Source of the DNA: a virus
Virus record (IMG/VR): IMGVR_UViG_3300032307_000516
Coordinates: 8,050 to 72,049 of that record
Direction: 5' to 3' (one strand)
Length of the DNA stretch: 64,000 bases
Shown here: positions 1 through 16,302 of the stretch, one piece after another
How the letters are laid out: each line of letters begins with the position of its first letter
How positions within the stretch are numbered: position 1 is the first letter of the stretch
Made by a program: the position numbers and the translations under genes
The notes under the pieces: model-generated
Database searches by the model: none
Told to the model about the DNA's origin: nothing
The model's input: the letters and a program-made list of their open reading frames with translations, nothing else

Positions 1-1
1 T

Positions 2-211
2 TTTCAAAATGCAGAAGGTGAAGATACAACAATAGAAATTGCTGGCGCTTCTGAGCCAGAATATGTTGGAAGTTCAATGGTAAGCAATATCGAGATGATC
101 GAAGATTCAAGCTCTGACGGAAAAAAATATTCAATCGTTGGATATTACGATGAAGTGCCTGGTCAAGACGGTGAATATGAGCTTAAAAAAGTACTAGTAG
201 AAGAAATATAA
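2..211 (+). CDS. 3' end of hypothetical protein (truncated by window)
   Basis: Open frame from base 2 to TAA at 209-211 (FQNAEGED...VLVEEI). Confidence 0.7.
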   Translation, partial: FQNAEGEDTTIEIAGASEPEYVGSSMVSNIEMIEDSSSDGKKYSIVGYYDEVPGQDGEYELKKVLVEEI

Positions 212-213
212 TC

Positions 214-495
214 ATGTCAATCAGAGTCTATTCAGGATACGATGAATTTAAGTTCGAGGAAGAAGAAATCTGCGAATATTTAGAATCCGATTTCTCAGAT
301 TCAAACGATGATGATGAATCAGATGATGTATTTTTTTATACTGAATCTAAAATAGATTTTAGAGACGATGCTGATTTTTATATAATCTGTGATACAGAGG
401 ACGAGGAGACAGCAGAGGATATAGCTTCTTATTTAGGTAAGGCTAAAAAAATAAATTTAGAAGATTTTAGGAAATCATTTTTTTATATAAGATAA
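214..495 (+). CDS. acidic hypothetical protein
   Basis: 93-aa ORF, D/E-rich, follows previous ORF by 2 nt. Confidence 0.7.
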   Translation: MSIRVYSGYDEFKFEEEEICEYLESDFSDSNDDDESDDVFFYTESKIDFRDDADFYIICDTEDEETAEDIASYLGKAKKINLEDFRKSFFYIR

Positions 496-501
496 AATAT
501 C

Positions 502-539
502 TATATTTGTGAAACAAAACAACAAATAAGATATATAAA
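502..539 (+). promoter_or_regulatory. promoter region of tRNA operon 1 (TATATTTG; GAAAC-N17-ATATA; GATATATA)
   Basis: Bacteroidota -7 box TAnnTTTG at 502-509 plus two motifs that recur upstream of many genes in the window. Confidence 0.55.
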
Positions 540-545
540 GTTTAA

Positions 546-605
546 ATGAAAACAATACTTAACATATTACCTTCAATATTAAGACCGTCGATAAGACGAT
601 CCTAA
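546..605 (+). CDS. leader peptide 1 (MKTILNILPSILRPSIRRS)
   Basis: 19-codon uORF rich in ATA/TTA/CCN/TCN/AGA, matching downstream tRNAs; stop overlaps antiterminator. Confidence 0.85.
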   Translation: MKTILNILPSILRPSIRRS

Positions 606-670
606 AGGTCCTGTGTTAATAAAAAATAATCATTAACTAAACCGGGACCTTTAAAAGTCTCGGTTTTTTT
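603..670 (+). terminator. attenuator 1: antiterminator 603-613 / terminator 639-670
   Basis: AAACCGGGAC/GTCTCGGTTT hairpin plus U-tract; TAAAGGTCCTG can alternatively pair with CGGGACCTTTA (643-653). Confidence 0.85.
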
Positions 671-671
671 A

Positions 672-684
672 TGTTCTTTGACAT
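672..684 (+). promoter_or_regulatory. boxA-like antitermination element
   Basis: TGTTCTTTGACAT resembles rrn boxA (TGCTCTTTAACA); recurs before each tRNA block. Confidence 0.7.
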
Positions 685-700
685 GTTGGATTATCAAATT

Positions 701-787
701 GGAGAGGTGGCAGAGCCTGGTTTATTGCACCGGTCTTGAAAACCGACGTAGTGAAAGCTACCGGGGGTTCGAATCCCTCCCTCTCCG
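701..787 (+). tRNA. tRNA-Ser(TGA)
   Basis: Cloverleaf with long variable arm, anticodon loop CTTGAAA. Confidence 0.95.
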
Positions 788-792
788 CATTT

Positions 793-866
793 GGTCCGCT
801 AGCTCAGCTGGATAGAGCAACTGCCTTCTAAGCAGTAGGTCTCAGGTTCGAATCCTGAGCGGATCA
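793..866 (+). tRNA. tRNA-Arg(TCT)
   Basis: Cloverleaf, loop CTTCTAA. Confidence 0.95.
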
Positions 867-1033
867 CACAAATCCCTCTGCCTAGCGCTGGGTATGGATC
901 GAAGATAGAATATGCCTCTACACCGTAGACAGGTAGGATACCTCGGTATTCTTTAATGATATGCACACTTATTCTCCAAATCGTTGGTTGGCACAGTTTG
1001 TATGTTCTGGTGATACTTAAAGACATACAATTT

Positions 1034-1106
1034 CGGGATGTAGATCAGTTGGTAGATCGCCTGGTTTGGGACCAGGAGGCCCCAGGTTCGAGTCCTGGTA
1101 TCCCGA
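1034..1106 (+). tRNA. tRNA-Pro(TGG)
   Basis: Cloverleaf, loop TTTGGGA. Confidence 0.95.
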
Positions 1107-1109
1107 CTA

Positions 1110-1172
1110 CGGAGGCTGTAAAGTCAAACAGTGAAGAATTTAAAGGATGACATCTTTAAATCCCTCCGACCA
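1110..1172 (+). ncRNA. small three-way-junction RNA ending in ACCA
   Basis: CGGAGG/CCTCCG closing stem followed by ACCA; two internal hairpins. Confidence 0.5.
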
Positions 1173-1173
1173 T

Positions 1174-1247
1174 AGAGGCGTAGCTCAATTGGTTAGAGCA
1201 CATGCCTTATACGCATGCGGTCACGAGTTCGACTCTCGTCGTCTCTA
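1174..1247 (+). tRNA. tRNA-Ile(TAT)
   Basis: Cloverleaf, stem CATGC/GCATG, loop CTTATAC. Confidence 0.9.
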
Positions 1248-1251
1248 CTTA

Positions 1252-1325
1252 GGTCCCTTAGCTCAGTAGGTTAGAGCAACTGACTCATAATCAGTAGGTC
1301 CACGGTTCGAGCCCGTGAGGGACCA
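1252..1325 (+). tRNA. tRNA-Ile2(CAT), lysidine type
   Basis: Loop CTCATAA; body (GGTCCCTTAGCTCAG...) resembles bacterial Ile2; separate fMet and Met genes exist. Confidence 0.85.
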
Positions 1326-1416
1326 CAAAGATACGGATGAGATTTCTAAATCTCCTACTTACTTATGAAAAGAAGGATTCCGTAACTAATACCATATAGT
1401 AGTGATGGTATTGTCT

Positions 1417-1499
1417 GCCCGGATGTTGAAATAGGTAGACAAGACGGACTTAAAATCCGTTGGCCATTGGTCGTGAGGGTTCAAGTCCCTCTCCGGGTA
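1417..1499 (+). tRNA. tRNA-Leu(TAA)
   Basis: Cloverleaf with variable arm, loop CTTAAAA. Confidence 0.95.
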
Positions 1500-1504
1500 C
1501 AAAT

Positions 1505-1611
1505 ATAATAGTGGCAGAGAGGCTTAATGCTGAGCATACATAGAGTCTGGGAATGTGGTATGTATGATACCTATACACGGGGACTCGCAGGTTCGAATCC
1601 TGTCTATTATA
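1505..1611 (+). ncRNA. tRNA-like RNA with replaced anticodon arm
   Basis: Acceptor ATAATAG/CTATTAT, D arm, T arm GCAGG-TTCGAAT-CCTGT, 56-nt non-canonical centre. Confidence 0.6.
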
Positions 1612-1614
1612 TAT

Positions 1615-1719
1615 ATAGGAGTGGCGGAAGCGTGATCTTTGCAAAGGTCCGATAGATAGACGACAGGGTGTCATACCCGAGAATGAAAGTTCATATTGGT
1701 GCAAGTCCAATCTCCTGTA
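1615..1719 (+). ncRNA. tRNA-like RNA with D-loop insertion and aberrant anticodon arm
   Basis: Acceptor ATAGGAG/CTCCTGT, Leu-like TGGCGGAA...TAGACG, T arm ATTGG-TGCAAGT-CCAAT. Confidence 0.55.
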
Positions 1720-1743
1720 CTTTTTTGATATATATAAAGAATC

Positions 1744-2115
1744 ATGAGTGAACATATTAAGATATCAGGAATGGGTATAGAAATATACAAAAATGATATA
1801 CCAGGTGTAAGATGGAATAAAGCTCAGTCTTTTGCTCAGATTCTTGGAGATGGATGGAGATTACCAACTTTAGAAGAACTTGCTTTAATAAGATCAATAA
1901 GAAATATAGGTGATATAGGAAGATTTCCTGTAGAATATTCGGATTTTTCCGATTCATATTACTGGAGTAACGAAGAACGCGAATTTACTACTAAAAAAAT
2001 GATGGGAAGTAGTCTTAAAAGTACCTATGCTTACTTTTTTGATATGGCTGAAGGAACTTCTTCACACAATAAAAAGTCATACGAGCTTAGGGCTAGATTT
2101 GTTAGAGATATATAA
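1744..2115 (+). CDS. DUF1566/Lcl-like domain protein
   Basis: GWRLPTLEEL, YYWS and C-terminal RARFVR motifs. Confidence 0.7.
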   Translation: MSEHIKISGMGIEIYKNDIPGVRWNKAQSFAQILGDGWRLPTLEELALIRSIRNIGDIGRFPVEYSDFSDSYYWSNEEREFTTKKMMGSSLKSTYAYFFDMAEGTSSHNKKSYELRARFVRDI

Positions 2116-2118
2116 ATC

Positions 2119-2895
2119 ATGCCAACAACAAGAGCATTTGCATATAATCCAGCACAAGCAACAATTTCTGGAACTACAAATATAGGTACATTATGTGTAG
2201 GTGTATCTGCTTTAAATTACGGAGGAAATCCTGGTGGATTAACTTGGTGGATGGGTCCGGACGAGGATAATTCTTATGTTATAGCTAAGGATGTGCCAAC
2301 AGCAGACTTCCCTACTCCAGTAGGTAATGTTGGTAATGTACAATTTTGGAGATGTTCTAACAACAGCTCAGAATTCACTAATCTTGTTACATTAATAAGT
2401 GGTACTACACAAGCATCTGCTTCTGCTGCTCAATCGTGGCTATCAACAAATAATTATTGGACTAATTACACTAGCGGAGTAACTTTCTCACAACCTTTTG
2501 TAAATGGTACTGCACCAACAAATGCAGTAGAAACTGCTTGGAATACATTTAGAGCATCTTTAACAGGTTCTTATACACAATTTGTTGTATCTAATTCATT
2601 AGGGTTTAGTTTAACAGTAAGTCATGCTACTTCAGTACAGACTTTGGCAAATGCACTAAGAAATGCAACAAATAATACCTCGGTAACTATAAACAGCGTA
2701 GTTTGGAGAGTAGGAACAGGATGTGGAACTCCTAAAATAGGTGGGGTTGCTGTTGAATTTTCCAACGTAGCAAGCTGTAGTTCATCAAGTACTATAGCAT
2801 TTAGACCTATGATTAATAACTTAAACTGGGGAGGTATGGGTACAGGATCTACTGTAGGACAGGCTTCACAAACAATGACACTAACATTTAGCTAA
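2119..2895 (+). CDS. hypothetical protein, probably virion-associated (T/S/G/N-rich)
   Basis: 258-aa ORF preceded by GATATATA motif. Confidence 0.7.
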   Translation: MPTTRAFAYNPAQATISGTTNIGTLCVGVSALNYGGNPGGLTWWMGPDEDNSYVIAKDVPTADFPTPVGNVGNVQFWRCSNNSSEFTNLVTLISGTTQASASAAQSWLSTNNYWTNYTSGVTFSQPFVNGTAPTNAVETAWNTFRASLTGSYTQFVVSNSLGFSLTVSHATSVQTLANALRNATNNTSVTINSVVWRVGTGCGTPKIGGVAVEFSNVASCSSSSTIAFRPMINNLNWGGMGTGSTVGQASQTMTLTFS

Positions 2896-3047
2896 TGGAA
2901 ACTTATAGAATAATAGACTTAAGAGTAACCCCAAATGAAATAGTACCAGGTAAGGAATCTGTTACTTTAGAAGAGGGACAATTATGGATAGACGAGAACG
3001 GAGGAGATTGTCCATTGTGCGACTATACGCTATTAATCAATGAATAA
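2895..3047 (+). CDS. small hypothetical protein (50 aa, CxxC)
   Basis: TAATG overlap with upstream gene; METYRIIDL...DCPLCDYTLLINE. Confidence 0.55.
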   Translation: METYRIIDLRVTPNEIVPGKESVTLEEGQLWIDENGGDCPLCDYTLLINE

Positions 3048-3153
3048 ATGTAGATTTTTTAAAATAATTTGAAAAAAATACAAAAAACATTTTTTTAAAC
3101 GGGAACTTTTCCGTACTTTTGGAGTATATAATAAAAAAGGAACAAAACTTTCA

Positions 3154-3243
3154 ATGAAACACTTTTTAAATATCGAAATGGATCTTCAGCTTCTAAAAGG
3201 AGACGAACGTCTTGAGGATACAAATAAGTGTCAGAGGAAATAA
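3154..3243 (+). CDS. leader peptide 2 (MKHFLNIEMDLQLLKGDERLEDTNKCQRK)
   Basis: 29-codon uORF rich in GAR, GAY and CTN codons, matching downstream Glu/Asp/Leu(TAG) tRNAs. Confidence 0.8.
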   Translation: MKHFLNIEMDLQLLKGDERLEDTNKCQRK

Positions 3244-3293
3244 ATTTATATAAAGATATAATTTAAACCTCTGATAACCTCAGAGGTTTTTTT
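3229..3293 (+). terminator. attenuator 2: antiterminator 3229-3237 / terminator 3265-3293
   Basis: AAACCTCTGA/TCAGAGGTTT hairpin plus U-tract; TGTCAGAGG pairs alternatively with CCTCTGATA. Confidence 0.85.
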
Positions 3294-3301
3294 GTTTTAT
3301 A

Positions 3302-3314
3302 CGCTCTTTGAAAT
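3302..3314 (+). promoter_or_regulatory. boxA-like element
   Basis: CGCTCTTTGAAAT. Confidence 0.65.
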
Positions 3315-3317
3315 TAT

Positions 3318-3392
3318 GGTCCCTTCGTCTATCGGTTAGGACGTTAGGTTTTCATCCTAGAAAGAGGGGTTCGATTCCCCTAGGGACTACCA
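3318..3392 (+). tRNA. tRNA-Glu(TTC)
   Basis: Cloverleaf, loop TTTTCAT, encoded CCA. Confidence 0.95.
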
Positions 3393-3397
3393 GAAAA

Positions 3398-3471
3398 GGT
3401 CCTACAGTCCAGTTGGAGTGGACGCCGCCCTGTCACGGCGGAGATCGCGGGTTCGAGTCCCGCTAGGACCG
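3398..3471 (+). tRNA. tRNA-Asp(GTC)
   Basis: Cloverleaf, loop CTGTCAC. Confidence 0.95.
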
Positions 3472-3569
3472 CTAAAACTTATGCTACATAGAGCAAAGCA
3501 GAAAGGTACGATCTGGTACACTATGAAGTACAAATAGAAAGTCAGATCATAAGTTTTAAAAAATTATAT

Positions 3570-3642
<73 letters not shown>

Positions 3643-3856
3643 CTAATAAGTTATTTGAAATATTTGCGAAAAGTTCGATGGAATCAATTATAGGTCCAGG
3701 GCACAAATCCGTGTGAGGAATCCAATTGATAGAAGAACCTTCTACTGAGTAATGCACGTACACGTGATATCCATAGAAAAGTCCTAATAAGTTAAAGGCA
3801 AAGGAGTTGATAATACCGGTTAAAAACAACTTTATCTCTTTAGATAGCAAATAAAT

Positions 3857-3936
3857 GCCCTCGTGGTGGAATTGGTAGACACGCTAGACTTAGGATCTAG
3901 TGCGAAAGCGTGAGAGTTCGAGTCTCTCCGAGGGTA
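3857..3936 (+). tRNA. tRNA-Leu(TAG)
   Basis: Cloverleaf with variable arm, loop CTTAGGA. Confidence 0.95.
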
Positions 3937-3938
3937 CT

Positions 3939-4436
3939 ATGAAAGTTATATTTTTAGATTTTGATGGTGTTCTTAATCTTATACCTCAAGGACATGACTA
4001 TTACGGAGGGATTTTTCACCCTGAATTTGTCGGCAACCTAGGTAGGATTATAGAGGAAACTGGAGCAAAACTTGTGATAAGCTCTTCGTGGAGAACTATG
4101 GGATTGGAAAGACTTAGAATGATGTGGGAACATCGTTTATATCCAGGAGACATCATAGGAGTTACCCCAGATCTTAGATGGAGGACAAAAAAAGATGCTA
4201 TGGAATTAAACGAAGTCGAGTACGTTAGAGGAGATGAAATAGAGTCATGGCTAAATCTACATCCGGAGGTAACTAATTATGTTATACTTGACGATGATGA
4301 TGATATGTTACAATCACAAAGAATAAACTTTGTAAGAACATCTGATAATATTAATCATCCTGATTGCATTGATATAGGATACGGATTAACTAATATTTGT
4401 TCTAACGATGCAATTAGAATTTTAAACAGAAAATAA
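3939..4436 (+). CDS. HAD-superfamily phosphatase (HAD_SAK_2-like)
   Basis: MKVIFLDFDGVL, SSSWR, RGDEI, YVILDD motifs; start corrected to the ATG after tRNA-Leu. Confidence 0.85.
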   Translation: MKVIFLDFDGVLNLIPQGHDYYGGIFHPEFVGNLGRIIEETGAKLVISSSWRTMGLERLRMMWEHRLYPGDIIGVTPDLRWRTKKDAMELNEVEYVRGDEIESWLNLHPEVTNYVILDDDDDMLQSQRINFVRTSDNINHPDCIDIGYGLTNICSNDAIRILNRK

Positions 4437-5005
4437 TGAAAGTTATATTTTTAGATCATGATGGAGTAATTTGTCTTTCCCAGCAATTTGGTGGGCGTTA
4501 CAAAAAGCAGACTAAAGCTAGAACTAAGCTTTCTCAAAACGTGATGGATTTTCCAGTCGATGCTAGATTTGATAACTTCGATAAGAAAGCTATTAAAGTT
4601 CTAAACCTAATCTTAGAAGATACTGGAGCTGAAATAGTTGTTTCTTCTGATTGGAAGAACTGGGCAAATGTTGAAGAAATGGGCGAATATTACGAACAAC
4701 AAGGTATAATTAAAAAGCCTATTGATTTTACACCTAGAGAATACACAATGCCAGAGAAACAAGAATGGCATCCAGACTGGGATTTAGAAGCATCAAGAAC
4801 TTTAGAAATCCAAGAATGGCTAAAAGATCATCCAGAGGTTACTCATTGGGTAGCAATAGATGATTTAGATATGAGCTTTAAAGAGGTATCAAATAATAGA
4901 AGCGGTACTGGCTGGGGCTTAAAAAACTTTGTACACACCCCAAGTATCACTGAAGGGATTAAAAAAATGGGTATAAAAGAAAAAGTTTTAAAATTTTTAA
5001 AATAA
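4436..5005 (+). CDS. HAD-superfamily phosphatase (HAD_SAK_2-like), paralog
   Basis: FLDHDGV, SSDWK, WVAIDD motifs. Confidence 0.85.
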   Translation: MKVIFLDHDGVICLSQQFGGRYKKQTKARTKLSQNVMDFPVDARFDNFDKKAIKVLNLILEDTGAEIVVSSDWKNWANVEEMGEYYEQQGIIKKPIDFTPREYTMPEKQEWHPDWDLEASRTLEIQEWLKDHPEVTHWVAIDDLDMSFKEVSNNRSGTGWGLKNFVHTPSITEGIKKMGIKEKVLKFLK

Positions 5006-5088
5006 TTTCAAAAAACATTTTTTTATTTAAAAAATATATTGTACTTTTACGAAACTATTCTGGAAACAGGATATATAATTAAGAAAAA

Positions 5089-5196
5089 ATGAAAAACTGT
5101 AGTAAACATAACATCAATCGCATGAACAGTCAAATTAATGGCTGCTATCAAACGGTGGCGTTTTGGGCTAAGGGGAAAGAACCCGATCGAAGCTAA
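5089..5196 (+). CDS. leader peptide 3 (MKNCSKHNINRMNSQINGCYQTVAFWAKGKEPDRS)
   Basis: 35-codon uORF; first 30 codons use exactly the 16 amino acids whose tRNAs lie downstream. Confidence 0.88.
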   Translation: MKNCSKHNINRMNSQINGCYQTVAFWAKGKEPDRS

Positions 5197-5255
5197 TACA
5201 GAAAATCATAATTAGATATTTTGGAAAAGGCTTCGATTTAATCGAAGCCTTTTTT
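5185..5255 (+). terminator. attenuator 3: antiterminator 5185-5194 / terminator 5225-5255
   Basis: AAAAGGCTTCGAT/ATCGAAGCCTTTT hairpin plus U-tract; GATCGAAGCT pairs alternatively with GGCTTCGATT. Confidence 0.85.
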
Positions 5256-5258
5256 ATT

Positions 5259-5271
5259 TGTTCTTTGACAT
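5259..5271 (+). promoter_or_regulatory. boxA-like element
   Basis: TGTTCTTTGACAT, identical to 672-684. Confidence 0.7.
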
Positions 5272-5283
5272 ACTGGAAAAAAT

Positions 5284-5356
5284 GGTACCGTAGCTCAGTT
5301 GGTAGAGCACTAGACTGAAAATCTAGGTGTCGCCGGTTCGATTCCGGCCGGTACCA
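5284..5356 (+). tRNA. tRNA-Phe(GAA)
   Basis: Cloverleaf, loop CTGAAAA. Confidence 0.95.
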
Positions 5357-5427
5357 CAATACTAAACAAGAAATTGTCTCACTAAACTAATCATGTTTAG
5401 TATTACAAAAACAAGTTTAGTAACAAT

Positions 5428-5501
5428 GATCTCGTAGCTCAGTTGGCTAGAGCACCTCACTTTTAATGAGGGAGTCGAGGGTTCGAGCCCCTCCGGGATC
5501 A
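5428..5501 (+). tRNA. tRNA-Lys(TTT)
   Basis: Cloverleaf, loop CTTTTAA. Confidence 0.95.
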
Positions 5502-5507
5502 CTACAC

Positions 5508-5580
5508 ACGTCAGTAGCTCAATTGGTAGAGCGTTGGTCTCCAAAACCAAAGGTCGTAGGTTCGATTCCTACCTGGCGTG
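5508..5580 (+). tRNA. tRNA-Trp(CCA)
   Basis: Cloverleaf, loop CTCCAAA. Confidence 0.95.
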
Positions 5581-5586
5581 CTAAAA

Positions 5587-5659
5587 GGCTCTGTAGTTCA
5601 AGGGATTAGAATGGATCACTACGGATGATCTGATCCTGGTTCGAATCCAGGTGGAGTCT
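5587..5659 (+). tRNA. tRNA-Arg(ACG)
   Basis: Cloverleaf, loop CTACGGA. Confidence 0.9.
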
Positions 5660-5670
5660 CAAACAAATAA

Positions 5671-5742
5671 GGTCGTGTGGTCGAGTGGTTTAGGCACTAG
5701 TCTGCAAAACTAGTTATACTGGTTCAATTCCAGTCACGGCCT
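5671..5742 (+). tRNA. tRNA-Cys(GCA)
   Basis: Cloverleaf, loop CTGCAAA, U73. Confidence 0.92.
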
Positions 5743-5759
5743 CAAAAAATGTAAGAAGT

Positions 5760-5885
5760 ATGAAAATAGTTATTGAAGGAAAAATGAAATCGTCGAATCA
5801 CAGATTAAATGCGATTCCAGTTAAAATTGAAAGAAAAAATTCTCTAATCAAAAGAATCAAAAGATTGATTAATAAAGGAAAGTAA
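5760..5885 (+). CDS. small basic hypothetical protein (41 aa)
   Basis: MKIVIEGKMKSS...RLINKGK fills the spacer; stop lies inside tRNA-Ser(GCT). Confidence 0.4.
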   Translation: MKIVIEGKMKSSNHRLNAIPVKIERKNSLIKRIKRLINKGK

Positions 5886-5962
5886 TCTCAGATGGTGACG
5901 GGGCTCGCCTGCTAAGCGAAGCGTACCTTAATTGGTATTTGGTTCGATTCCAATTCTTTCCG
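5877..5962 (+). tRNA. tRNA-Ser(GCT)
   Basis: Loop CTGCTAA, long variable arm; slightly imperfect stems. Confidence 0.85.
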
Positions 5963-5968
5963 CAACAT

Positions 5969-6042
5969 TGACATATAGCTCAGTTGGTTAGAGCGTTGAT
6001 CTGATACGTCAAAGGTCGAAGGTTCGAATCCTTCTATGTCAA
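5969..6042 (+). tRNA. tRNA-Ile(GAT)
   Basis: Cloverleaf, loop CTGATAC. Confidence 0.93.
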
Positions 6043-6058
6043 CTTAAAAATTATAAAA

Positions 6059-6085
6059 ATGAAAAAAGAATTTGACAACTTGTAG
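6059..6085 (+). CDS. 8-aa uORF MKKEFDNL whose TAG lies in a hairpin
   Basis: A-rich leader, ATG...TTG TAG; CTTGTAGG/CCTACAAG hairpin abuts the ATG at 6106. Confidence 0.45.
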   Translation: MKKEFDNL

Positions 6086-6105
6086 GTTTAATTAAACCCT
6101 ACAAG

Positions 6106-6297
6106 ATGAGTAAAAACACAAACAGAGCAAAACTGAACAAAGCAATGAATGGTAGAGAACACAGAAACATTTTAAATAATGCTCTTTATCCTCCATACAG
6201 TGAATATGATCACACATGGTGGCATGGAAATTTATCCAATCACAAATGGAGATCATACAAAACCTGGAAACACAACAGAAAAACAAAATGGAAGTAA
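6106..6297 (+). CDS. small basic Trp/Lys-rich hypothetical protein
   Basis: 63-aa ORF ending WRSYKTWKHNRKTKWK. Confidence 0.65.
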   Translation: MSKNTNRAKLNKAMNGREHRNILNNALYPPYSEYDHTWWHGNLSNHKWRSYKTWKHNRKTKWK

Positions 6298-6308
6298 TTC
6301 CATTTTAC

Positions 6309-6381
6309 AGTCTCTTAGCTCAGTTGGTAGAGCGCTTGGTTTACATCCAAGATGTCGGGGGTTCGAGCCCCTCAGGGACTA
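6309..6381 (+). tRNA. tRNA-Val(TAC)
   Basis: Cloverleaf, loop TTTACAT. Confidence 0.95.
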
Positions 6382-6384
6382 CAA

Positions 6385-6537
6385 GATTAGAAGCGGTAGA
6401 TTTGGTTACTTCGCACTTTTAATGCCCGTGTCGGGGGTTCGAATCCCTCATCTAGCTCCATAGCAGATCCTAGGATTTGTGCTAGATTAGCTCAGCGGTA
6501 GAGCAGGTTCCAAACCAAATCTAAATATTCTCTAATC
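6385..6537 (+). ncRNA. scaffold RNA copy 1 enclosing a circularly permuted tRNA-Lys(TTT)
   Basis: 3' tRNA half 6413-6460 precedes 5' half 6481-6507; flanks GATTAGA/TCTAATC and AGATTTGGTT/AACCAAATCT pair. Confidence 0.85.
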
Positions 6538-6545
6538 CTAATATT

Positions 6546-6629
6546 GATTAGAAGCGGTGAAAGGGGTTACTTCTCAAAACCTTGTAAATTTTTGACCAAA
6601 AAACCACCCCGATTAAATATTCTCTAATC
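6546..6629 (+). ncRNA. scaffold RNA copy 2 without tRNA cargo
   Basis: GATTAGAAGCGGT...GGTTACTTC...TAAATATTCTCTAATC repeated, with a different inner stem GGGGT/ACCCC. Confidence 0.75.
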
Positions 6630-6635
6630 AAAACT

Positions 6636-6707
6636 GGGGATGTAGCTCAGCGGTAGAGCTCCCGACTGTTAATCGGTAGGTCGCTGGTTCGAATCCAGCC
6701 TTCCCCG
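6636..6707 (+). tRNA. tRNA-Asn(GTT)
   Basis: Cloverleaf, loop CTGTTAA. Confidence 0.93.
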
Positions 6708-6743
6708 CAATTCAGAGTGTTGAGCAATTGGTTGCTCAGCTGA
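6687..6743 (+). repeat. direct repeat copy 1 (tRNA-Asn 3' end plus truncated tRNA-Tyr 5' part)
   Basis: Near-identical to 7870-7927. Confidence 0.85.
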
Positions 6744-6780
6744 TAAAAGAATATATTATATTTAGATTCAATTTTAAGTT

Positions 6781-7716
6781 ATGACAGGATACCATATATA
6801 CTACCAAACATCAGAAGATGGAGAATATGAGCAAATAAATTATTTAGTTCAATTAGCTTCAATTTTAAATTGGAAAAAGAATTATGGCCCCATCAAATTG
6901 TATTGTAACCAAAGATTTCTAGAGTCTATATCCAAATATGGAATTGATAAAGAATATGATTTTATTGATACTGAGTATTTAGAATCAGTTCCATATAAAG
7001 ATAGTATGTCGACATTTTGGAGCTTTTGCAAAATTTATGTCGCTAAAAAGATTGTCGAAACTGAATCGGAATTTTGTATTTTAGATACTGATTTATGGAT
7101 TCAAGCGCCTGACTTATTAAGTCAAGAACATGATTTAGTTTTACATCACGCTGAAGCTTATGATCTAAATTATGATCGCAACCCATATCCAGATCCTAGA
7201 AATTGGTTAATTGAGTCAGAGATAGAAGAATATGATTGGAATACCTCTCCCGCAAATTGCGCGATATTGTATTTTAAAAATAAAAGTAAAGAGTTAATAG
7301 ATGCTTGGTATGAATTTGCAATTAAAATAGTAGAGCGTCATAAAGATAATAATACAGAACCGAATTTGCGTTGCGGTACTATTTTTATCGAGCAACGTCT
7401 ATTACCTACAATAGCAAAGAAAATGGGTATATCAATGACGGTCGTGTCTCCTTGTACTTATTTAACTTGGATACCAGCTTCATTGGCTGATGGGCGGGAA
7501 TGGAGGCCTTCATTAGATTATTCAGAACGATCTTTATATATTGGTTCTAATATTAAACATGTATGGGGAGCAAAAAAGTTTTATTCTGAAAATTGGATTC
7601 GGGAGTTAATAATTGACAATGCTATGATAGGAATTAATTTAGTTCAGAATCAAGAAAGAAAGTATTTTAAGTTATACAGTGATGTGCATGAAGTGCATCC
7701 AAAAAAATATATTTAA
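6781..7716 (+). CDS. DUF6734-like / GT-A glycosyltransferase-like protein
   Basis: GPIKLY, FWSFCKIY, hydrophobic strand plus DTD (DxD), EQ motif. Confidence 0.6.
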   Translation: MTGYHIYYQTSEDGEYEQINYLVQLASILNWKKNYGPIKLYCNQRFLESISKYGIDKEYDFIDTEYLESVPYKDSMSTFWSFCKIYVAKKIVETESEFCILDTDLWIQAPDLLSQEHDLVLHHAEAYDLNYDRNPYPDPRNWLIESEIEEYDWNTSPANCAILYFKNKSKELIDAWYEFAIKIVERHKDNNTEPNLRCGTIFIEQRLLPTIAKKMGISMTVVSPCTYLTWIPASLADGREWRPSLDYSERSLYIGSNIKHVWGAKKFYSENWIRELIIDNAMIGINLVQNQERKYFKLYSDVHEVHPKKYI

Positions 7717-7785
7717 AATAAATTAAAAAATATTTGGTACTTACAAATGGTAACACCTTATATTTATATATAGTTAAAAAGAAAT

Positions 7786-7799
7786 AGTTCTTTAAAAAT
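7786..7799 (+). promoter_or_regulatory. boxA-like element
   Basis: AGTTCTTTAAAAAT directly upstream of tRNA block. Confidence 0.5.
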
Positions 7800-7802
7800 A
7801 TT

Positions 7803-7891
7803 GGAAGGGTGACAGAGTTGGTCTATCGCGCCGGTCTTGAAAACCGGTGAACTCGAAAGGGTTCAGTGAGTTCGAATCCAACCTTCCCTCG
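7803..7891 (+). pseudogene. chimeric pseudo-tRNA-Ser(TGA) with Asn-derived 3' end
   Basis: Ser-type 5' part and variable arm intact; T stem and acceptor mispair because sequence after GTTCGAATC matches tRNA-Asn. Confidence 0.75.
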
Positions 7892-7927
7892 CACTTCGGA
7901 GTGTTGAGCAATTGGCTGCTCAGCTGA
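7870..7927 (+). repeat. direct repeat copy 2
   Basis: Near-identical to 6687-6743. Confidence 0.85.
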
Positions 7928-7981
7928 CTGTAAATCAGCCGCCTTACGGCATTGGGGGTTCGAATCCCTCCGCTCCGACCA
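7897..7981 (+). tRNA. tRNA-Tyr(GTA), C1:G72
   Basis: Loop CTGTAAA, variable arm, encoded CCA. Confidence 0.93.
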
Positions 7982-7984
7982 AAT

Positions 7985-8059
7985 GCAGGTATCGTATAAC
8001 GGTCATTACTTCTGACTTCCAATCAGAAGATCTCGGTTCGATTCCGGGTACCTGCTCCA
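7985..8059 (+). tRNA. tRNA-Gly(TCC)
   Basis: Loop CTTCCAA, U73, CCA. Confidence 0.95.
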
Positions 8060-8062
8060 AAT

Positions 8063-8102
8063 GCCGGGTGATCCTCTCGTTGAATCACGAGAGCCGGCTC
8101 CA
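8063..8102 (+). ncRNA. 40-nt minihelix-like RNA ending TCCA
   Basis: GCCGG/CCGGC-T-CCA stacked on CTCTCGT/ACGAGAG hairpin. Confidence 0.5.
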
Positions 8103-8103
8103 C

Positions 8104-8177
8104 GGGGGATTAGCTCAGTTGGCTAGAGTACTTGCCTTGCACGCAAGGGGTCATCGGTTCGAATCCGATATCCTCCA
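8104..8177 (+). tRNA. tRNA-Ala(TGC)
   Basis: Loop CTTGCAC, G3:U70. Confidence 0.95.
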
Positions 8178-8186
8178 CTTTTATAT

Positions 8187-8259
8187 GGCGAGTTAGCTCA
8201 GTTGGTAGAGCGTCGGAATCATACCCCGAAGGTCGGCAGTTCGAACCTGCCACTCGCTA
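8187..8259 (+). tRNA. tRNA-Met(CAT), elongator
   Basis: Loop ATCATAC, paired 1:72. Confidence 0.9.
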
Positions 8260-8261
8260 CT

Positions 8262-8338
8262 GTGACGGTAGCTCAGTTGGTTAGAGCGTCTGATTGTGGT
8301 TCAGAAGGTCGGGGGTTCGATTCCCCTCTGTCACCCCA
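8262..8338 (+). tRNA. tRNA-His(GTG)
   Basis: Loop TTGTGGT, C73, CCA. Confidence 0.93.
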
Positions 8339-8339
8339 T

Positions 8340-8412
8340 GCCTTTGTAGCTCAGCTGGTAGAGCGCTTCACTTGTAATGAAGATGTCGCAGGTTCGATCC
8401 CTGTCAAAGGCT
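8340..8412 (+). tRNA. tRNA-Thr(TGT)
   Basis: Loop CTTGTAA. Confidence 0.95.
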
Positions 8413-8418
8413 CTATAA

Positions 8419-8491
8419 TGTCCTGTGGTGTAATTGGCAACACGTCTGATTTTGGTTCAGAAGAGTCCAGGTTCGAGCCCTGGCGGGACAT
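8419..8491 (+). tRNA. tRNA-Gln(TTG)
   Basis: Loop TTTTGGT, U1:A72. Confidence 0.95.
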
Positions 8492-8537
8492 CTAAAAAAT
8501 AAGATAAATACAATAACCAGTATGTAAAAATAGAGCT

Positions 8538-9026
8538 ATGAAAGTGCTAGTATTAAATAATGACTTTACGCCTATAAGCGTTACCGATTTTGCCCGGGGA
8601 TTTAAGCTTGTATATAAAGGTAAAGCAGAAATTTTAGAGCACGATGAACAAAACCCAATTGTTACTGATCAAAGCACCTACAAAAGACCATCAGTAATTC
8701 GACTTCTAAAGTATGTTGTTTTGCCTTTCAAAAAGCTAAAACCTACAAGGGAAAATATCTTTAAAAGAGATGAGATGAAATGTATCTATTGTGATACATC
8801 AAAAAATCTCACAATAGATCACGTTTTTCCCAGATCTAGAGGTGGTGGTAACACATGGGAAAATTTAGCTACATGCTGTTCAAAATGTAACGGTAGAAAA
8901 GGAGATAGAACCCCGGAAGAAGCCGGAATGAAAATGAGACAAAAGCCATTTAAACCCGGATATGGCTATTTCATAAGGAATTTTTCCAAAGGAATAGATG
9001 TGTGGACAGCATATCTTCCAGATTAA
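8538..9026 (+). CDS. HNH endonuclease (McrA-like)
   Basis: CxYC, TIDHVFPRSRGG, WENL, CxxCN motifs. Confidence 0.9.
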   Translation: MKVLVLNNDFTPISVTDFARGFKLVYKGKAEILEHDEQNPIVTDQSTYKRPSVIRLLKYVVLPFKKLKPTRENIFKRDEMKCIYCDTSKNLTIDHVFPRSRGGGNTWENLATCCSKCNGRKGDRTPEEAGMKMRQKPFKPGYGYFIRNFSKGIDVWTAYLPD

Positions 9027-9097
9027 TAATTTATAGGAATCGTTTTTTTTATTCTAGAAGTTTCTATATTTTTATCATAACCAAAAATGTAAAATAT

Positions 9098-9649
9098 ATG
9101 AAATACTATTTAATCATCCTATTATCAGCATTTATAGGTTTTAATTCTTTCTCACAAAGTGCTATAGAAAAAGAGTTATTAAATCAGCTTAATGTTTATC
9201 GTAAAAGCAAAGGTTTAGGACCTATGTCTATCGATGCAAAATTATACGATGTAGCATTATATCATTCTAGATACTTAGAACAATGCGCAATAGTAGGACA
9301 TAATACACATTATGATAAATTGCCTCACGATGAGCAGTTCGATATCAAAAACCACAAAGAAATGAATACAGATCTTCGTGCTGCGATGTATCCAGATGGA
9401 AATATGTACGGGGAAATATCAATGCAATCTTTTTTAATCGATTCGACTGCTAATGTTACTAAAATATGTAAATCAATAATCGATCAATTCGCAGGGTCTC
9501 CAAATCACAAAGAAATCATGGTTACAGATTTTGGTACGGATAAAAGATTAAAACCAATTGTGGGTATTTCAGTAATACAGGTAAAATGCGATATTCCAGG
9601 AAACTATAAGTATGTCGTAAATATAGATTTCGGGGTTATTACTTTTTAA
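9098..9649 (+). CDS. secreted CAP/SCP-domain protein
   Basis: Signal peptide MKYYLIILL..., LNVYRKSKGL, A..HS, SPNH motifs. Confidence 0.7.
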   Translation: MKYYLIILLSAFIGFNSFSQSAIEKELLNQLNVYRKSKGLGPMSIDAKLYDVALYHSRYLEQCAIVGHNTHYDKLPHDEQFDIKNHKEMNTDLRAAMYPDGNMYGEISMQSFLIDSTANVTKICKSIIDQFAGSPNHKEIMVTDFGTDKRLKPIVGISVIQVKCDIPGNYKYVVNIDFGVITF

Positions 9650-16244: not shown

Positions 16245-16302
16245 GGAAACATTTTTTTATAAACAAAATAATAGTTACATTTACACTAATAAAATAATCG
16301 AT

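Follow-up and report, generated by a model that had tools for sequence, protein, structure and literature searches.

A candidate leader-peptide attenuator preceding a six-gene tRNA array in an uncultured phage

The stretch of DNA analysed here (the window) comprises 64,000 nucleotides of a large uncultured lake phage (viral record IMGVR_UViG_3300032307_000516 from IMG/VR) and corresponds to positions 8050-72049 of this 72,049-base contig. The DNA is AT-rich (35% G+C), and ARAGORN finds 26 tRNA genes in the window, all on the plus strand and arranged in four groups. The first group, array 1, consists of six genes and is preceded by a short open reading frame (ORF), leader 1, and by an intrinsic terminator (Table 1). 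The element considered in this work, a candidate attenuator of array 1, occupies positions 476-700. The array gene with the CAU anticodon is 81.3% identical over 75 nt, its full length, to an E. coli gene with the CAT anticodon that is annotated as tRNA-Ile, and the two other CAT tRNAs of the window align more poorly with that gene. A fair reading of the sequence is that the product is a lysidine-dependent Ile2 tRNA, the modification being putative.

Table 1. Features of the candidate attenuator, of the tRNA array downstream of it and of two further leaders in the window
Feature	Position	Strand	Remarks
Promoter-like motif CATTTTTTTA-N16-TATATTTG	476-509	+	Same spacing before leaders 2 and 3 (3088, 5016)
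Leader 1 ORF	546-605	+	ATG 546-548, TAA 603-605; 19 codons; peptide MKTILNILPSILRPSIRRS
Region 1, anti-antiterminator 5' strand	559-573	+	Within codons 5-10; pairs with 605-619
Cognate run, codons 7-17	564-596	+	11 codons readable by array 1 tRNAs
Upper part of 1:2 hairpin	580-604	+	CGTC (586-589)/GACG (595-598), loop GATAA
Region 2	603-619	+	Begins at the stop codon; pairing partner region 1 or region 3
Spacer with weak inner stem	615-637	+	Centroid fold of 600-672
Intrinsic terminator	639-670	+	Stem 639-648/657-666, loop 649-656, T-run 664-670 (terminator scan)
Region 3, antiterminator 3' strand	640-653	+	Overlaps terminator 5' arm 642-648
boxA-like TGTTCTTTGACA	672-683	+	Between terminator and tRNA-Ser
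Six-gene tRNA array, putatively under leader 1 control	701-1500	+	
tRNA-Ser(UGA)	701-788	+	ARAGORN; array 1
tRNA-Arg(UCU)	793-867	+	ARAGORN; array 1
tRNA-Pro(UGG)	1034-1107	+	ARAGORN; array 1
tRNA-Ile(UAU)	1174-1248	+	ARAGORN; array 1
tRNA CAU, Ile2-like	1252-1326	+	ARAGORN; array 1
tRNA-Leu(UAA)	1417-1500	+	ARAGORN; array 1
Leader 2, MKHFLNIEMDLQLLKGDERLEDTNKCQRK	3154-3243		Terminator 3265-3289; TCAGAGG (3231-3237) copies terminator 3' arm
Leader 3, 35 codons	5089-5196		13-bp terminator 5225-5253

The original prediction assigned codons 7-17 of leader 1 (ATA TTA CCT TCA ATA TTA AGA CCG TCG ATA AGA) to the downstream tRNAs Ser-TGA, Arg-TCT, Pro-TGG, Ile-TAT, CAT (Ile2-like) and Leu-TAA. The sequence reads as claimed and all these tRNAs are called by ARAGORN; 10 of the 11 codons need standard wobble only, and CCT, for which extended wobble had been proposed, requires U34 reading U. 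Of all codons in 71 crude gene calls of the phage, 20.0% (21.7% with ATG) belong to the extended cognate set of 11 codons, whereas in leader 1 the set accounts for 12 of the 18 post-start codons (binomial 5e-5 against the 21.7% background). The 11-codon run, the limits of which were chosen post hoc, is the longest in the six frames of the 72-kb contig, the next ones (9 and 8 codons) both lying on the minus strand. When the whole ORF is compared with the array at the amino-acid level, five amino acids are shared, three (K, N, T) occur in the leader only and none in the array only (Fisher 0.004). With the other arrays the leader 1 codons agree in 1 of 18 cases (array 2) and in 6 of 18 (arrays 3 and 4 together, where the background is 0.666). 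It had also been noted that ATA and AGA are abundant in the phage genes, and the gene calls bear this out: ATA accounts for 41% of Ile codons, AGA for 78% of Arg and TTA for 43% of Leu, these three being the commonest phage codons for their amino acids. The stretch upstream of leader 1 is A-rich and without a Shine-Dalgarno (SD) sequence, resembling the phage's own genes, of which 3 of 71 have an SD-like 4-mer and which contain 51% A upstream of their starts.

The terminator stem consists of 10 pairs, 5 of them G-C, and the hairpin alone has an energy of -12.9 kcal/mol. The three best plus-strand terminators that the scan gives in positions 1-9500 are the hairpins preceding tRNA groups 1, 2 and 3. 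The predicted 11-bp antiterminator starting at the stop codon is present: TAAAGGTCCTG (603-613) and CGGGACCTTTA (643-653) form a helix with 10 Watson-Crick pairs and one G-U pair, which is extended by the pairing of 615-617 with 640-642. This antiterminator is the minimum free energy (MFE) structure of positions 600-672 (-16.2 kcal/mol, z -3.1; none of 200 shuffled sequences equals it). The inner stem GTTAAT (615-620)/ATTAAC (632-637), which had been supposed to bring the two strands together, is complementary but weak, being found in the centroid fold and absent from the MFE structure; the spacer of the window folded alone gives no stable structure (0.0 kcal/mol).

The switch consists of four segments and not of three, region 1 having been overlooked in the earlier description. 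Folding of 515-672 gives an MFE structure of -32.1 kcal/mol (z -5.0; no equally stable fold among 200 shuffles) in which region 1 is joined to region 2 by two helices, 559-566/612-619 and 569-573/605-609, and the terminator forms alongside. When region 1 is removed, the 2:3 antiterminator (-16.2) beats the terminator (-12.9). There are, in total, three alternative helices, 1:2, 2:3 and the terminator, and the choice of region 2 between region 1 and region 3 is the layout of the trp and his attenuators.

The promoter-like motif upstream of leader 1, in the form CATTTTTTTA-N16-TAYWTTTR, has 4 matches against 0.01 expected, three of these sites having served to define it, and TCTATATTTGTGAAACAAAA is kept in relatives. 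The fourth copy (16250-16283, CATTTTTTTA-N16-TACATTTA) is found 20 nt upstream of a normal protein-coding gene (ATG 16304), so the motif seems to be a general phage promoter type and not a leader-specific one. The gap between the T-run, ending at 670, and the tRNA-Ser gene, starting at 701, is 31 nt and leaves no room for a promoter; therefore, the leader and the tRNAs share a transcript. The sequence TGTTCTTTGACA within this gap may be similar to the boxA of rrn operons, a Nus antitermination site that follows the promoter or leader in stable-RNA operons. The pattern TTCTTTRAMA has 4 matches in the window, a number at chance level (2.9 expected), and three of them are just upstream of tRNA arrays (674, 5261, 7788).

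The influence of a translating ribosome was modelled by folding the transcript with a 28-nt stretch kept single-stranded for each A-site position, which is an equilibrium treatment with an assumed footprint. Without a mask the probability of the terminator is 0.96-1.0, region 1 sequestering region 2 in this untranslated state. It is at most 0.07 with the A-site at codons 3-12, about 0.3 at codons 13-14, and again 0.96-1.0 from codon 15 up to and including the stop. If no pairs are allowed between the two sides of the ribosome, termination is low for codons 3-15/16, and codons 17/18-20 terminate (footprint edges +10 to +14). This ban is sterically more sensible, and according to the modelling the sensing window would cover about codons 3-16, with codon 17 at or past its edge. 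The models suggest that the operon would be opened only by a ribosome held in the cognate stretch, and closed by the absence of translation as well as by smooth translation.

Homologues of leader 1 were collected by pattern scans of viral and metagenome contigs. The first DNA pattern, with 16 specified bases, was too loose (at least 119 stretches, mostly chance) and was replaced by stricter ones; L200-L202, which were GC-rich chance matches, were dropped. The scans gave 30 distinct leader-1 sequences, of which 27 full-length ones were aligned (alignment A1) and represent 21 distinct leaders, while L216, L223 and L228, truncated upstream, were excluded. The metagenome search pattern required the terminator and fixed much of regions 2-4. 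A terminator-plus-tRNA pattern found 6 loci in viral contigs, none beyond the homologues already found, and a search of 185,579 prokaryote genomes with the attenuator pattern gave 0 matches. A tRNA-Ser(UGA) gene starts 20-34 nt past the pattern match, which ends in the T-run, in 25 of the 30 distinct attenuators. The HAD-like gene at 4436-5002 has 356 relatives, on viral contigs of up to 316 kb, and the contigs of the nearest ones keep the same three arrays and three leaders.

The leader frame is open in all 21 distinct homologues, compared with 0 of 21 for the +1 frame and 9 of 21 for the +2 frame, and the ATG is kept in 20. The stop has one of two positions: it coincides with the start of region 2 or, where a 1-nt indel has occurred, lies within region 2 five codons further on. 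Codons of the cognate set fill 223 of 231 positions in the core (codons 7-17) versus 16 of 105 in codons 2-6. Counted as codon types, 29 of 35 in the core and 7 of 28 in the N-terminal part belong to the set (Fisher 7e-6), and Ile is written as ATA in 54 of 56 core cases versus 6 of 22 N-terminal ones (p 5e-10); the rows are related, and both values overstate independence. All 48 Ser codons of the core are TCN and none is AGY, which makes up 24% of Ser codons in the genes, and every Arg codon at positions 13 and 17 (42 of 42) is AGA. Positions 8, 10, 11, 12, 14 and 16 interchange I, L, S and P, almost solely via ATA, TTA/TTG, TCN and CCN, and such replacements are radical for a peptide. Codons 10, 11 and 16 are the least structured and the most variable, and still they stay within the cognate set. 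It is on such variable unpaired positions that the argument for tRNA matching rests; codons 13-19 are near-invariant at the nucleotide level because they are held by the upper part of the 1:2 hairpin.

The structure of the element is also retained. The terminator is present in all 27 aligned homologues, having been required by the pattern for the metagenome rows. The helix of region 1 is paired in 86.5% of cells, with 2 pairs changed on both sides, and the upper part of the 1:2 hairpin in 90.5%, with a GC to AU change on both sides in two rows. Taken together, 1:2 and the terminator are paired in 91.7% of cells, and this value falls to 40% when the partner is shifted by one column. Helix 2:3, most columns of which are fixed by the search pattern, is paired in 93.7% of cells (64% after the one-column shift). 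The spacer occurs in 14 distinct types; 12 of these, though unrelated in sequence, form small hairpins of -1.1 to -5.2 kcal/mol, whereas the spacer of L225, like the type of the window, gives 0.0 kcal/mol alone.

In one homologue the leader codons have changed along with the tRNA array, a natural case of co-variation. The array of L220 (861-1014, minus strand) consists of Ser-UGA, Arg-UCU, CAU, Leu-UAG and Leu-GAG; the 13.2-kb locus has no BLAST match to the Pro-UGG, Ile-UAU and Leu-UAA genes of the window, and the 863 nt at hand downstream of the attenuator contain no called Pro tRNA. Its leader, MININNILLLSSRSSIRRSDKVLC, is the sole homologue without a Pro codon and the sole one with CTG and CTC. 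L116 (3509-3658, minus strand) has ATA in place of the ATG and a reduced array of Arg-UCU, Ile-UAU and Glu-UUC, and it looks like a decaying unit.

The two other leaders of the window have the same layout as leader 1 and different codon sets, each matching its own array. All three, like the leaders of related phages, share the promoter motif, an MK start, a stop adjoining a copy of the terminator 3' arm, the boxA-like site and the tRNAs that follow. Leader 2 precedes the genes of Glu-UUC, Asp-GUC, an initiator-like CAU tRNA and Leu-UAG; 11 of its 28 codons are cognate to this array against a background of 0.183, and it switches in the mask simulation. In leader 3, 30 of 34 codons are cognate to its own array (background 0.666) and 1 of 34 to array 1; its codons 2-29, a window chosen post hoc, hold exactly the 16 amino acids of the tRNAs of groups 3 and 4. 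A distant clade (L042, L050, L054, L067, L068, L072) possesses a 37-codon leader, MKQNS(K/T)HN...RVLNKM, located about 60-170 nt before tRNA-Asn or tRNA-Trp, and its array order differs. This leader contains 17 of the 17 array amino acids and lacks Glu and Tyr, the tRNAs for which are found in L050 in a separate cluster.

Taken as a whole, these features make it likely, though well short of certain, that the segment 476-700 is a four-segment leader-peptide attenuator of the trp/his type, which gauges the decoding of ATA, TTA, AGA, TCN and CCN codons and feeds back on the six tRNAs downstream. Transcription would initiate at the phage promoter near 476-509, and the 19-codon ORF (546-605) would be translated while the polymerase proceeds. 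If there is no translation, region 1 (559-573, continued to 589) would pair with region 2 (595/603-619), the terminator would form and transcription would stop. A ribosome reaching the stop codon would cover region 2, and the terminator would form again. Only a ribosome stalled at about codons 3-16 would mask region 1 and free region 2, which could then pair with region 3 (640-653) and capture the 5' arm of the terminator, so that the polymerase passes the boxA-like site into the cognate tRNA genes. The signal would be the supply of charged tRNA for the five codon families, host and phage tRNAs combined. A shortage of any one species would open the whole operon, as in an OR gate, and accumulating phage tRNAs would close it again by negative feedback. 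The earlier proposal that the leader senses these five codon families thus holds in part: the anatomy, the codon conservation over the 21 leaders and the fit of L220 speak for it, while codon 17 lies at or beyond the edge of the sensing window and codons 13-19 are held by the hairpin. The further suggestion, that the operon makes up for a difference in codon usage between phage and host, is a conjecture.

A number of observations weigh against this attenuator model. In about 9 of 25 homologues, with terminators of -14.4 to -15.9, no switching occurs at equilibrium with any mask, and the terminator of leader 3 likewise wins at every ribosome position, so that the switch there would have to be kinetic; a kinetic choice is usually assumed for classical attenuators. 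Codons 3-6 (ACA, ATA, CTT, AAC) fall inside the modelled sensing window and ATA alone among them is cognate, the decoding of CCT depends on U34-U reading, and the constancy of codons 13-19 is not creditable to tRNA matching alone. With a mean column identity of 82%, the family is too close to give more than thin covariation: double-sided changes are seen in four pairs versus 1.6 in shuffles, 17 of 500 of which reach this number, and in one pair of helix 2:3, a result reached by 133 of 500 shuffles. Furthermore, L003 and L208 keep two TTA codons with no Leu-TAA gene in the DNA examined, and L215 keeps one ATA though Ile-TAT is lacking. Translation of the ORF, coupling to the polymerase, stalling, regulated readthrough and the direction and size of the response are what we infer from this anatomy.

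In the RNA-library run X15 a 224-nt contig corresponds to positions 536-758 with 0 mismatches and spans the terminator into tRNA-Ser, and in run X17 another 0-mismatch contig covers 1125-1284. The flanking protein genes (200-535 and 1741-2200) have no contig in four RNA runs, in which uncovered parts prove nothing. The two 0-mismatch contigs are a weak hint of expression; the contig 536-758 may be DNA in an RNA library and is uninformative on transcript termini, because contigs show no ends. The small shares of words in runs X13-X20 do not count as evidence of habitat. Most RNA-run contigs on the window are tRNA look-alikes of other organisms, with 88-95% identity, and were left unused. A megablast search of positions 1-9000 against GenBank phages gave nothing longer than tRNA-length matches, and the best protein matches, at 32-39% identity, come from huge uncultured phages and from Lak Prevotella phages. 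Together with the SD-less gene starts, these matches hint, and only hint, at a Bacteroidota-like host. Copies of TANNTTTG, the -7 box of Bacteroidota, show no enrichment in the window (64 observed versus 75.6 expected), which counts against the proposed scheme, and the box was dropped as host evidence.

An unlikely account is that the element is a true ribosome-mediated attenuator that gauges general translation stress, amino-acid supply (through the charging of Ile, Leu, Pro, Ser and Arg tRNAs) or ribosome availability after host shut-off, and not how abundant these particular tRNAs are, the codon match serving only to tune its sensitivity. It is established knowledge that amino-acid and tRNA shortage are indistinguishable to classical attenuators reading charged tRNA, and the same promoter type and layout before all three arrays would fit a common stimulus. 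The Anabaena trn operon also answers general translational stress (PMC8421152; PMC10272220). Such a gauge needs no partition of codons, yet leader 1 matches array 2 in 1 of 18 codons and leader 3 matches array 1 in 1 of 34. In addition, synonymous choice is tied to the array tRNA (ATA not ATY, TCN not AGY), separating isoacceptors of the same amino acid, and in L220 the shift of the leader from TTA/CCN towards CTG/CTC parallels that of the array.

Improbable, in our estimate, is the absence of any switch, with 639-670 being a plain, perhaps leaky, terminator or a processing or stability hairpin, and with an untranslated ORF whose composition results from RNA structure and AT-richness. Codons 5-10 and 13-19 are indeed base-paired and could be conserved for structure alone, AT-rich DNA gives runs of ATA, TTA, AGA and TCA elsewhere (9 and 8 codons, in other frames), and equilibrium folding favours the terminator in many homologues. 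No Rfam family is matched at its gathering score, Thr_leader reaching 22.9 versus 55. On such an account, however, the least structured codons 10, 11 and 16 would not be expected to vary most and yet remain in the set, nor the frame to be open in 21 of 21 leaders with an in-frame stop that never leaves region 2, a 1-nt indel notwithstanding. The three paralogous units and the distant clade all fit different arrays, L220 co-varies with its own, and an element of structure alone needs no region 2 able to pair with both region 1 and region 3.

It is very improbable that the switch is set by a non-ribosomal factor, such as uncharged tRNA in a T-box-like manner, an RNA-binding protein of phage or host, or Nus factors at the boxA-like site. 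Attenuators governed by a protein or a tRNA are known to be common in SD-poor or uncoupled bacteria, and a boxA-like motif does follow the terminator; this site, however, lies downstream of the terminator and cannot decide termination there. Cognate codons in an open frame would not be needed by a protein or tRNA sensor, and neither the T-box nor any other Rfam family is matched at E<=1, save the chance-level Thr_leader. Least credible of all is a functional micropeptide with a hydrophobic N-terminal half and a basic RPSIRRS tail, having its own terminator and lying near the tRNAs incidentally, since, although most homologues largely preserve the residues I-L-P (7-9) and L-R-P-S-I-R-R-S (12-19), radical replacements (I/S, L/S, L/P, P/S, P/Q) affect 6 of the 11 core positions, synonymous drift is missing (ATA 54/56, AGA 42/42, no AGY Ser), the shared transcript follows from the lack of promoter room between 670 and 701, and three unrelated peptides occupy the same arrangement.

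The proposed attenuator of array 1 can be compared with known systems. The attenuators of amino-acid operons (trpL, hisL, pheL, leuL, thrL, ilvL) share, as textbooks describe, an ORF with regulatory codons, the alternatives 1:2, 2:3 and 3:4, a terminator with a T-run and a stop codon over region 2, and thrL and ilvL, like leader 1, include several amino acids per leader. Leader 1 contains the features by which leader-peptide attenuators are recognised, namely a codon-enriched short ORF, a terminator, helices 2:3 and 1:2 and a suitable geometry in the mask model, the last partly held in homologues. Amino-acid operon attenuators control biosynthetic enzymes, whereas leader 1 precedes tRNA genes, in a phage, and its match, unlike theirs, extends to the single codon and isoacceptor (ATA not ATY, TCN not AGY, AGA not CGN). 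The E. coli pheST attenuator with its pheM leader is a case of leader-peptide attenuation of a component of the translation machinery; there, a synthetase is controlled and one amino acid is sensed, in contrast to tRNA genes and five codon families in leader 1. T-boxes are similar in that attenuation reads the state of a specific tRNA via a codon-like element and chooses between terminator and antiterminator, but they bind tRNA directly, without translation, and control synthetase and amino-acid genes. The T-box covariance model has no match in positions 1-9500 at E<=1, and the Rfam search of the same positions found Thr_leader (RF00506) at 573-673 with 22.9 bits (gathering score 55, E 0.95) and no other leader family at E<=1.

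To our knowledge, leader-peptide attenuation is known for amino-acid-making genes and pheST, and not for tRNA genes. Full-text literature searches, whose coverage leaves out subscription journals and supplements, found no paper on leader-peptide control of tRNA genes. The nearest published case is the trn operon of Anabaena sp. PCC 7120, which comprises 26 tRNA genes, is silent and is induced by translational stress, under the control of direct repeats in the promoter and the RHH repressor TrcR (PMC8421152; PMC10272220). In PMC8421152 the words attenuat-, leader and terminator have 0 occurrences. The trn operon, too, is an array of accessory tRNAs that impaired translation switches on, while the control by leader 1 would be cis-acting, translated and codon-resolved. 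The his leader is reported to have been used as a gauge of the speed of codon reading (PMC4046918).

Several other features of the tRNA region were observed. Downstream of tRNA-Leu(UAA), positions 1501-1740 contain structured tRNA-like stretches uncalled by ARAGORN, and the contig depth over 1529-1604 is very high in two of the RNA runs, reaching about 300 in one and about 1000 in the other. Two tandem HAD_SAK_2 genes, 3939-4433 (E 6.5e-27) and 4436-5002 (E 9.3e-23), lie within the tRNA region, the first beginning 2 nt past tRNA-Leu(UAG); HAD_SAK_2 is the HAD domain of 'Swiss Army Knife' RNA repair proteins. At 5876-5962 there is a tRNA-Sec-like Rfam match (38.3 bits, gathering score 47) with no ARAGORN call; this site is tRNA-Ser(GCU) in relatives L007 and L008, and AGT and AGC codons are present in leader 3. 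Between the Val and Asn tRNAs, 6385-6630 contains tRNA fragments and weak YrlA-like (Y RNA-like) Rfam matches (28.3 bits, gathering score 69). The third tRNA operon is interrupted by a gene for a 311-aa protein (6781-7716), the DUF6734 match of which is weak and below the cut-off; in relatives L001-L009 the 15-18 tRNAs are not interrupted by it. Group 4 (7802-8492) is without a leader, terminator or promoter motif of its own.

A broader reading is possible and, in our opinion, rather doubtful: the three leaders may be codon-resolved gauges of tRNA, and not of amino-acid, supply, each listing the isoacceptors of its own array, by which the phage would detect the loss of host tRNAs and replace exactly the lost species, with feedback on the whole tRNA set and with the HAD_SAK_2 genes belonging to the same response. 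If this is true, the loss of host tRNAs through shut-off or through cleavage by a host anticodon nuclease would be detectable by the phage, and the system would be the first leader-peptide attenuation known for tRNA genes and a natural self-regulating 'rare-codon tRNA plasmid'.

If the attenuator preceding array 1 is what it appears to be, the regulated product would be the very molecule sensed, giving a one-step homeostat for individual tRNA species, and each array of phage tRNAs would be expressed when it is needed instead of constitutively. It might also serve as a compact natural part that reports the decoding speed of chosen codons in SD-less hosts. With about 30 distinct leader-1 sequences and other leader families, the design seems to be widespread in uncultured large freshwater phages and would give a handle on why phages carry tRNAs, be it codon-usage mismatch, loss of host tRNAs or anti-defence.

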